Shown here: positions 1-3,000 of the stretch, piece after piece | Layout: every line of letters begins with the position of its first letter | How positions within the stretch are numbered: position 1 is the first letter of the stretch | DNA from: a virus | Lineage: Duplodnaviria; Heunggongvirae; Uroviricota; Caudoviricetes | Length of the DNA: 18,316 nt | Virus record (IMG/VR): IMGVR_UViG_2526164603_000034 | Direction: 5' to 3' (one strand) | Made by a program: the position numbers

Positions 1-3000
1 ATGGACAACGACAAAATTGATCAACACAGCGACGAAATTGAAGTTGAGAGCGAAGAAAAAGAGCGTGGCAAAAAAATAGAAATAGATGAAGATCGACTCC
101 CCTCCCGGGCGATGGCAATTCATGAGCATATCCGCCAGGATGGTGAAAAAGAGCTGGAACGCGACGCAATGGCACTACTGTGGTCAGCCATTGCGGCGGG
201 TCTGTCGATGGGCGCTTCATTACTGGCAAAAGGGATATTTCATGTCGAACTGGAAGGTGTGCCGGGCAGCTTCTTGCTGGAGAATCTCGGTTATACCTTT
301 GGTTTTATTATCGTCATTATGGCCCGCCAGCAATTATTTACCGAAAACACCGTGACTGCGGTACTACCCGTCATGCAAAAACCGACAATGAGCAACGTTG
401 GCTTACTTATGCGGTTATGGGGCGTCGTGCTGCTGGGTAATATTCTCGGGACAGGTATTGCGGCGTGGGCATTTGAATATATGCCAATCTTCAATGAAGA
501 AACTCGCGATGCATTTGTCAAAATCGGCATGGATGTGATGAAGAACACCCCCAGCGAGATGTTTGCCAACGCGATCATTTCCGGCTGGCTGATCGCCACT
601 ATGGTATGGATGTTTCCTGCAGCGGGTGCGGCAAAGATTGTGGTGATTATATTGATGACCTGGCTTATTGCCCTGGGTGACACCACTCACATCGTTGTCG
701 GTTCTGTTGAAATCCTCTATCTGGTGTTTAACGGTACGCTGCACTGGAGCGATTTCATCTGGCCCTTCGCACTACCTACTTTAGCGGGGAACATCTGCGG
801 CGGCACCTTTATCTTCGCGTTAATGAGTCATGCACAGATCCGTAACGACATGAGCAACAAGCGCAAAGCAGAAGCACGCCAAAAAGCAGAACGTGCGGAA
901 AACATTAAGAAAAATGATAAAAACCCGGCATAAATGGCGAGGGTTTAAGCAATCGAGCGGCAGCGTACTTACCCCGCAGTCCATTAGCGGGTATACTCAT
1001 GCCGCATTGTCCTCTTAGTTAAATGGATATAATGAACATAAATATCAATCCATTGATTTAAATGCATTAAATACCAAAACACCCATCACAACAGTACTCA
1101 CTTATGTACACATTATGTTAAGAATGCCCCGCACTTCAGTACGGGGCAATTTCTCTTACTCCACCCCCACTTTTTTGTTGTACTCGCGGTTAAACCGATC
1201 CACGGCAATCTTCATATCCCGCTCAACCGATTTCACCATCGCCGACTGTTGCGCCAGACTGAGAGTACTGTCGGCATAAATGGCATCACGCTGTTTACGC
1301 AAATCCTTCAGTCTCTTCCGGGTATCCTGCATAAGCCCGTTCATCGACAATTTTCCGTTGTTCTCGTCAATGAATGCCGTTCTTTCGGAACCCCTCAGGC
1401 TCTTCAGCTCTGCGTGGTACTGCACAACCTCCGTCATCCGGTCATACATCTTCTGCTGGTCAGCATACGGCATCACCTCTCCCGAAATTTTCCCCAGGAA
1501 AGGCACCTGCTGCTCCGGTATATCAATACCATTCAGCGATTTCACCGCCGCATCCGTGGTTTTGGAAATGAAGCGACCTGTACCACCAGAGATATAGTCC
1601 ACCCAGTATTTCAGCGATTCCGGTGTGATATCCACCGCGCCTGAACGGTACTGGCTGCCACCTGAGAACGCATTCAGCCAGGATGCAAACGCCTTGTACG
1701 CTTCTGGCGTTGAACGTCTTCCCAGCTGGCTGTCAGGTTTTGGTGTACCAAACGGCATGTTCTCCTGGTAAATCTGCGCCCCCATGAAGTTTTCATTCAT
1801 GGCAAGGTTCGCAAACGGACGCAGAATGGTCGGCGCTGCATTTTTCAGCAATGCCCCGGACAGTGTTTCCGACGTCTCACTGCCAATCGGGCTGAATGCA
1901 CCAAGCACACCACCAACAACATTACCGGCAGCACGGGACGCCGTCAGGTCACCCGCCGCCACACCTTCAGCGGTATGCCCGAGCAGGAAGAAAACGTTGT
2001 ACCCGTAAGGCAGAGGAATACTCCAGTACTCACCGGCTTTGCCCCCGAACATCGATTTCATAATAACGAGGTTGCGCTCTTTCACATGATCAGGCACCTT
2101 GTCATACCAGTTAACCCCGTCATCATCCTCACCCGCCACACTCCGATTAAGCGAGCCAAGCAGATAACCCGCTCCCACAGCAGCAAGCGCGATTTTCTGA
2201 GGTACATTCAGATTCTTCCAGCGAAGGCGCTCCAGTAACGGACCGTCACCATTAAGGTGCCCAAGGGTTCTCACAAGGTTTGCCGTCCCCTGAATGCTGG
2301 CGTTAGCGAACATGTACAGCGAGTTCATCAGCGCCCCCTGCTCACCACGACGGTTAAAGTTCACCGTCATGTTTTTGGCAAGAGACGCCACCTGCTGGCG
2401 TGACAAACCGGCATCACGGGCGTGCTTATAGGCAGAAAGACGCAGTGCGTTTTCAACCGCACCGTTGGCATCCTCCACAAGGTTCAGGAACGAATTCCAT
2501 GCACCGATACTCTGGCCTTTCCATCCCCCCTTCGCCAGCGATACAAGGCGATCCATTTCCTTCTGCTGGCCTTCAAGGTCACCCATGTTAAACCAGCCGG
2601 TTTTACCTCCATCCTCAACAAACTCTTTCCACACCTTCTGCCACTGTGCGCCTTTGCCCGTGAGGGTTTTACCCCGCAGACTGGCGTATACGGCTGACAT
2701 GGCGGAACGGCTGTCTTTCACCACAGCCAGGGCGGATAAGTTATCCAGCCCTTTCAGTTTGCCGTCGCTCCTTCCCTGCTCAGCCTTCAGGTTCATCACC
2801 GCCGTCTGCACGTCACGGATGAAGTTACTGACCAGAAATTCCGGGTTATACGACGTGTTCACCGTTGCCAGGAAGCGGTTAACTTTCCCCAGCGTACGGA
2901 TTACGGCGTTACTGGTTTCCGGCCCCATGTTCTTCATCGCACGCATCAGGCGCGGGTCATGGAGTTTGATGTAGTAAGTTTTGCCGTTCTTTTTGGTGGT

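Follow-up and report, generated by a model that had tools for sequence, protein, structure and literature searches.

Elements that integrate into transfer RNA (tRNA) genes in the classical manner supply the 3' part of the tRNA, with P4 at leuX, P22 at thrW and HP1 as examples, and in the scheme attributed to Williams in 2002 the integrases involved reportedly use the anticodon-loop, T-loop or 3'-end positions of the gene. Further background on this classical mode of integration is available (PMC7192596). For the phage Phi24B (vB_EcoP_24B), recombination has been shown at a 24-bp crossover site, with a minimal bacterial attachment site (attB) of 93 bp made up of a 49-bp B arm, the 24-bp core and a 20-bp B' arm, with a minimal phage attachment site (attP) of 427 bp and independently of IHF (PMC7581858); its primary site has been described as '250 bp upstream of intS' (PMC5247750). 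Separately, argW is routinely listed as a site of Shiga toxin (Stx) 2a phages in genomic studies of Escherichia coli O157 (PMC4587872, PMC4645166, PMC6580645, PMC8065619). Here we describe a junction in an 18,316-nt stretch of DNA, hereafter the window, taken from the IMG/VR virus record IMGVR_UViG_2526164603_000034. Positions 934-1155 of the window are almost certainly the integrase-distal hybrid attachment site of a Phi24B-type short-tailed Stx2a prophage inserted in argW, the tRNA-Arg(CCU) gene, of E. coli O157:H7, with argW itself rebuilt at the far end of the prophage.

An earlier note on this DNA, made from the sequence alone, had recognized the first 24 nt of tRNA-Arg(CCU) at 1009-1032 followed by divergence, and the match turned out to be exact: the block GTCCTCTTAGTTAAATGGATATAA equals nt 1-24 of the complete tRNA at the far end and covers the 5' strand of the acceptor stem, the 5' side of the D-stem, the D-loop and 3 nt of the 3' side of the D-stem. 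Identity with argW is lost after nt 24, the window having T at 1033 vs C at tRNA position 25. The block has a single match in the whole window when up to 3 mismatches are allowed, and none of 200 shuffles gave a match. ARAGORN called zero tRNA genes in the whole window, and an E-value scan of 800-1400 against Rfam returned no significant family, only chance-level matches (Thr_leader, E=0.17, and sR44), both of which were dismissed, the Thr_leader match being driven by a hairpin. Upstream, the order of features was as the earlier note had it, with the tRNA start following yfdC and a TATACT hexamer in front of it; the yfdC stop codon lies at 931-933, the gap to the tRNA start is 75 nt rather than the 76 first given, and the hexamer is at 992-997 rather than 993-998.

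The other end of the prophage was located in E. coli O157:H7 strain 9000, in which window 850-1400 (551 nt) is 100% identical; the far-end stretch of this matching prophage locus is denoted L002. A second copy of the 24-nt core lies 64,343 bp from the window copy (L002 20191-20214) and forms the start of a complete tRNA-Arg(CCT) gene called by ARAGORN (L002 20191-20265), the sequence of which is that of argW in non-lysogens, such that an intact tRNA gene has been regenerated. The search of the other island end that the earlier note had proposed therefore recovered both an intact argW and the direct repeat of the 24-nt segment. The repeat in strain 9000 extends to 25 nt owing to a fortuitous T at -1, and since Phi24B and other variants have C at that position, the meaningful repeat block is 24 nt. 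The integrase that was absent from the window, and had been expected at the other end of the island, stands beside the rebuilt argW. It is a tyrosine integrase encoded on the opposite strand, divergent from argW and starting 195 bp from it, with a Phage_integrase domain (PF00589) and a P4-type arm-binding domain (Arm-DNA-bind_3, PF13356), and it is 97% identical to the integrase of Phi24B, in the record of which an excisionase gene adjoins the integrase gene.

Reconstruction of both parental sites gave the same result. The attP obtained by joining the integrase-side phage flank, the core and the window from 1033 onward (384 nt) is found as one contiguous stretch in free phages, with 99.7% identity over its 384 nt for Stx2 phage 86, phi296 and phi419 and 99.2% for Lyz12581Vzw, and the attP in the Phi24B record reads ...caacaac, then GTCCTCTTAGTTAAATGGATATAA, then tgaataca, with a core identical to that of the window. 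The reconstructed attB (yfdC, the native promoter and intact argW) corresponds to the empty site in 5191 of 5426 complete E. coli genomes, where the same 75 nt precede the intact gene; the comparison with the empty site that the earlier note had suggested thus returned the normal yfdC-argW arrangement. Across the same genome set the window junction was found in 209 genomes and the integrase-side junction in 209 (two separate counts, not necessarily of the same genomes), and a complete argW is kept in 5426/5426. Existing annotation agrees: the GenBank record of VT2phi_272 has a 25-nt attL drawn over the 5' end of tRNA-Arg, and the records of the LC6160xx Stx2a phages mark a 24-bp 'duplication due to insertion'. 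The locus accordingly shows a direct repeat at both ends, a contiguous attP, an uninterrupted attB and a cognate, adjacent tyrosine integrase, and among the records examined there was no lysogen with a far-end argW lacking the 24-nt repeat and no free phage lacking the core.

The earlier note had left two explanations side by side, the first being that the element carries its own 5' segment and thereby restores a complete argW at the far end, and the repeat, the contiguous attP and the empty attB bear this out. The second was disruption of the tRNA gene by a secondary rearrangement, in which a deletion, insertion-sequence activity or illegitimate recombination at the island edge would have truncated argW and left the 24 nt as a dead remnant unrelated to the element's integration. 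Such a history could appeal only to the fact that neither a tRNA nor an integrase is visible in the window, and to the insertion sequences IS1203 and ISEc8, which are located elsewhere in the strain 9000 prophage. It is refuted by the attP and attB reconstructions and by the precise repetition of the 24 nt, in direct orientation, at the two prophage ends, the far one of which has a complete argW, and it is also at odds with the presence of the same 24 nt contiguous in the attP of free phages, with a boundary at nt 24 that is identical in unrelated hosts and elements, and with the experimental recombination of Phi24B at its 24-bp site (PMC7581858); we consider it extremely improbable.

The position of that boundary is informative. 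In three divergent attP sequences (the Phi24B type and two further ones from IMG/VR contigs), nt 24 is the last position of identity with the tRNA, and the same boundary is seen in other integrase-distal junctions from IMG/VR contigs with several different host-type flanks. The tyrosine integrase very probably recombines the 24-nt block common to attP and attB (nt 1-24 of tRNA-Arg(CCU)), and the integrase-side phage arm supplies the tRNA 5' end, along with a probable sigma-70-type promoter of its own and a ~33-nt leader. Integration in this way rebuilds a complete argW at the integrase end, which would be expressed from phage DNA, with the ~33-nt leader of its precursor removed by RNase P, and leaves the original promoter and a 24-nt argW stub beside yfdC, where the orphan promoter would transcribe into the phage (P') arm as far as the hairpin at 1125-1148. 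Since the identity block is the 5' end of the tRNA and not its 3' part, the element must bring a promoter and a leader, and in this respect Phi24B-type argW integration mirrors classical tRNA integration.

Because the block begins at the 5' end of the tRNA and stops shortly beyond the D-loop, strand exchange may be placed in the D-loop, with the D-stem dyad providing core-type half-sites that, in outward reading, would be TAACTAA (B), TAACGAG (B') and TAATGAA (C'). We give roughly even chances to exchange in the D-loop flanked by this dyad, and likewise to the GTACNCA repeats described below being arm-type integrase sites. When bracketing of the crossover by a host/element polymorphism at tRNA position 5 was attempted, all available two-junction contig pairs were uninformative. 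At that position some rebuilt argW copies carry T (GTCCTCT; L011, L036, L105, L114 and L116) and most copies outside E. coli carry C (GTCCCCT); together with an unchanged 3' acceptor strand, the T gives a G-U wobble, and it may mark an element-derived 5' acceptor strand. Additionally, the rebuilt tRNA in three IMG/VR prophage contigs (L096, L100 and L107) ends in ...GGGGACAAT instead of ...GGGGACACCA, which suggests that either the 3' junction is a different one, some other element occupying that end of argW, or the contig was trimmed at a predicted boundary.

Table 1. Features at and around the integrase-distal argW junction (positions in the window; a dot where no single strand is assigned)
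Feature	Coordinates	Strand	Basis
yfdC (formate/nitrite transporter family; host gene flanking the attachment site)	1-933	+	Open reading frame (ORF) call; annotated yfdC in matching genomes
Host (B) arm: native argW upstream region and promoter	934-1008	+	Sequence; comparison with E. coli genomes
Native argW promoter parts: -35-like TTACCC, -10 TATACT, GC-rich discriminator	969-974 (-35-like); 992-997 (-10)	+	Sequence
Core/crossover block GTCCTCTTAGTTAAATGGATATAA, argW nt 1-24, displaced copy	1009-1032	+	Sequence match
P' arm: AT-rich spacer, protein-binding-type repeats, hairpin	1033-1155	+	Contiguous with the integrase-side arm in free phages
TGAACA, fourth same-strand copy; other three in the integrase-side arm	1033-1038	+	Motif count
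Palindrome ATCAAT-cc-ATTGAT, matching the IHF consensus WATCAANNNNTTR on both strands	1043-1058	.	1043-1055 on +, 1046-1058 on -
GTACNCA pair, GTACTCA (1094-1100) and GTACACA (1106-1112); candidate arm-type integrase sites	1094-1112	+	Motif count
GC-rich hairpin just past the 2806-aa ORF stop codon	1125-1148	.	Folding
2806-aa ORF, annotated LPD38/LPD5 domain protein; first prophage gene, at the end of the late region, abutting the attachment site	1156-9576	-	ORF call; annotation

On the host side of the junction (Table 1), the -10 element of the native argW promoter lies only 11 nt upstream of +1. A promoter and terminator scan of 850-1300 called neither this promoter nor the hairpin at 1125-1148, the promoter going unscored because its -35 element matches at only 3 of 6 positions; the function of both is read from their position and from comparison. 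The native promoter, orphaned by the insertion, is now directed into the prophage. Between its -35-like and -10 elements, window 972-991 has the hairpin-capable sequence CCCGC-N9-GCGGG, which may be the yfdC terminator overlapping the argW promoter; this hairpin is 75% like the phage hairpin at 1127-1146, probably by coincidence.

On the phage side, the P' arms of other elements have the same layout as window 1033-1155, and two short repeats stand out in the attP as a whole. TGAACA occurs in four copies on one strand, vs 0.29 expected, with 0/2000 shuffles reaching four, and the copy in the window is conserved only among Stx-type P' arms. GTACNCA occurs in five copies, again all on one strand (three near the integrase gene and two in the P' arm), vs 0.13 expected, with 0/2000 shuffles reaching five. 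The P' arms shown from other hosts keep the GTACNCA pair at an unchanged distance, and the motif is also present in all 21 integrase-side arms and in a relative of the sbcB type; these repeats are the best candidates for arm-type integrase sites. The palindrome ATCAAT-cc-ATTGAT lies at 1044-1057, just where the earlier note had placed it, and is followed by the near-palindrome TTTAAATGCATTAAA, centred on ATGCAT, at ~1058-1072. In the Stx-type variants L121, L122 and L126 only the minus-strand IHF match (AATCAA-N4-TTR) is kept. The P' arm variants closest to this one conserve neither TTTAAATGCATTAAA nor the left half of ATCAAT-cc-ATTGAT, and we do not regard the palindromes as functional in themselves.

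Region 1049-1072 of the P' arm also contains two sequences resembling the core. One is a degenerate direct copy (TCCATTGATTTAAATGCATTAAAT), 71% identical to 1010-1033, and the other an inverted copy of the D-loop segment (ATCCATTGATTTAA vs TTAGTTAAATGGAT, 79% complementary), of which a clearer version, TTATATCCATTTTAA, is found in P' arms from other hosts (L124, L125, L129 and L133). These copies could represent an extra core-type integrase site, or chance.

The hairpin at the outer edge of the arm is stable on both strands, with -22.3 kcal/mol on the minus strand (z -6.5) and -16 kcal/mol on the plus strand (z -5.0). It is likely the terminator of the phage late operon, and possibly it also halts transcripts that start at the orphaned argW promoter. 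Since that native tRNA promoter, presumably a strong one, is aimed into 1033-1155, and since a 162-nt stretch folds better than its shuffles (z -2.9) and ends in this stable hairpin, 1033-1155 might be taken to encode a small RNA or regulatory element transcribed from that promoter and not to be just a recombination arm. The stretch has no match to an Rfam family, however, its sequence from the core to the hairpin is little conserved from one element to the next apart from the GTACNCA repeats, its fold is accounted for by inverted repeats at the DNA level, and the hairpin is placed where the terminator of the 2806-aa ORF would be expected; we therefore regard a small RNA as improbable and 1033-1155 as the P' arm of the attachment site.

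The integrase side of the element was compared across species. In genomes of other Enterobacterales and of Orbales, 20 relatives of the integrase (57-91% identical, with 18/20 at 67% or above and the other two being partial matches) are all divergent from a complete tRNA-Arg(CCU) and lie 171-207 bp from its 5' end. Alignment of 21 integrase-argW spacers showed that these are mostly diverged, with islands of conservation, and that TTGnnn-18-TAnnnT is present in 21/21, ending 39 nt before tRNA +1 in 20/21 and 38 nt before it in the remaining one. The two hexamers have an information content of 1.43 and 1.42 bits per column, vs 0.64 elsewhere, and the E. coli copy, TTGATT-18-TATTAT (L002 20122-20151), was called by a consensus scan. 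On the strength of this sequence conservation, TTGnnn-18-TAnnnT is probably an element-borne promoter that drives the rebuilt argW.

Some points weigh against the account given above. The exact crossover point within the 24 nt cannot be read from the sequence, since both partners are identical there; the IHF-consensus site is probably not needed, integration of Phi24B being IHF-independent (PMC7581858); and the U-tracts on both strands of the hairpin at 1125-1148 are poor, leaving termination of the orphan transcript uncertain. In addition, the 18-nt spacer of the phage-borne promoter is suboptimal, the promoter as a whole scores only 9/12 against the consensus, and the conserved hexamers could instead serve for integrase or excisionase binding or for regulation of the integrase gene. 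This last alternative leaves the reading of the junction untouched but would have transcription of the rebuilt argW begin at another point of the phage arm, or be only weak, and the location of TTGnnn-18-TAnnnT, in a region that must also house sites for recombination proteins, as well as its modest consensus match, speak in its favor. The rigid spacing, both between the hexamers in 21/21 and to the tRNA in 20/21, while the flanking columns diverge, argues the other way, as does the fact that an overlapping promoter-like match on the minus strand in E. coli is not conserved in other species. Furthermore, retention of argW in every one of the genomes counted implies that some promoter must be supplied. 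We thus hold it unlikely that the motif serves only such other functions, and favor its role as the promoter of the rebuilt gene.

Beyond the junction, the prophage to its right in strain 9000 is a short-tailed Stx2a prophage with an N4-gp56-type capsid protein, portal, terminase, Q and a cI-like repressor, and its stx2 is interrupted by an IS66-family element. The late region of the window (12801-12941, 13174-13908 and neighbours) carries accessory genes of a typical kind, which the strain 9000 annotation gives as a toxin of the Hok/Gef family, an outer-membrane protein of the Ail/Lom family and a small 'bacteriocin' ORF. Identity of the window with strain 9000 holds through 17787, after which an indel puts the two out of register (17788-18316). 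The ORF at 16180-17781 is intact in the window (533 aa) and its counterpart in strain 9000 is annotated as frameshifted, which indicates that the window comes from a different O157:H7 strain.

As to what is new here, the earlier note had called a junction on the 5' side of a tRNA gene unusual, which is fair by textbook knowledge, but the site has long been known for Stx2a phages (PMC4587872, PMC4645166, PMC7581858). The junction is already known as the standard argW site of these phages, with a published 24-bp Phi24B crossover and a repeat annotated in GenBank, and the locus is an ordinary one, which Stx2a phages regularly occupy in O157:H7 lineages of clinical importance; the window opens at its integrase-distal edge. 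In the Phi24B literature searched, the 24-bp crossover site is never called a tRNA or argW, and the O157 genomics papers searched name argW without giving the position within the gene. As the Phi24B papers searched never mention argW, the equivalence of that 24-bp site and argW nt 1-24 is shown here by sequence and is not quoted from them; we think it worth keeping. What is added is the placement of the site at the 5' end and D-arm of the tRNA gene, the probable promoter conserved on the element and the map of arm repeats, which were not found stated in an incomplete literature search. A full-text search of partial coverage, which is weak evidence, likewise yielded no explicit description of 5'-end/D-loop tRNA integration or of a promoter swap at argW.

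We advance a broader interpretation tentatively, with confidence somewhat short of even. Phi24B-type integrases may define a formally undescribed position of tRNA integration, with the D-arm dyad (GTTA / 8-nt D-loop / TAAC) as its core and an identity block running to the tRNA 5' end, as a mirror of the anticodon-loop class. A conserved promoter and a ~33-nt leader would then take over the single-copy AGG-decoding tRNA in every lysogen, the native promoter with its GC-rich discriminator, probably stringently controlled, would be redirected into the prophage, and '5'-end replacement' would be a trait of the clade, as at sbcB. Lysogeny would swap the promoter of the only tRNA-Arg(CCU) gene for one of phage origin, which could alter AGG decoding, or its growth-rate control, in Stx lysogens. 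Island-finding tools that rely on displaced 3' tRNA fragments would miss a class that leaves 5' fragments. These points do not overturn current understanding.

In comparison with described systems, the window prophage is closest to Phi24B and to the O157:H7 'argW' Stx2a prophages PA8, PA2, PA28, VT2phi_272 and Stx2-converting phage 86, with which it shares the core, the attP and the locus; it is a member of this Phi24B/argW Stx2a family with no essential difference. It resembles classical tRNA integration in having a tyrosine integrase with a P4-type arm-binding domain, an identity block stretching between a stem-loop dyad and one end of the tRNA, and an intact tRNA regenerated beside the integrase gene. 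It differs in that the block is tRNA nt 1-24 (the 5' end and D-arm) and not a 3' block, so that the displaced fragment is a 5' one, and in that the integrase gene is divergent from the tRNA and lies on its 5' side.

Integration of the KplE1/CPS-53 (IntS) and HK620 type uses the same target gene, argW. The IntS core of KplE1/CPS-53 is the 16-nt 3' end of argW, CTGCAGGGGACACCAT (PMC2951348). This core is not present at the window junction, and its single copy in L002 lies where the rebuilt argW has its 3' end; no second copy of it was found within 12 kb downstream of argW. The intS gene of a CPS-53/KplE1-like element lies 161 bp downstream of the rebuilt argW in O157 genomes, and in the matching O157 lineage the 24-nt core starts 236 bp upstream of intS. 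Unrelated integration modules thus make use of the two ends of argW. The complete argW of these lysogens is sandwiched between two integrase genes (L002 18826-21584), and the 24-nt 5' core and the 16-nt 3' KplE1 core of the one tRNA gene are both parts of attachment sites.

Replacement of a 5' end is also known from protein-coding targets. In the dusA-associated systems, islands and prophages replace the 5' end of dusA and bring putative -35/-10 elements, and dusA stays expressed (PMC4482086). The likeness to the argW element, which also replaces the 5' end of its target and probably brings a promoter, is one of functional analogy, with no claim of family membership, as the dusA target is protein-coding and the integrase family is different. 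The integrases of the sbcB site (an Stx2c prophage locus) are ~56% identical to the argW-type integrase. The E. coli sbcB-site integrase is divergent and lies ~180 bp from the start of sbcB (L026 2300-2700; L135 2480-2720), the host/element boundary falls ~16 nt inside the 5' end of sbcB, and GTACNCA-type repeats are found near the integrase gene. The sbcB type differs from the argW type in that its target is the 5' end of a protein-coding gene, with no tRNA nearby. Since a relative of only ~56% identity also replaces the 5' end of its target, 5'-end replacement looks like a property of the clade to which the argW-type integrase belongs.

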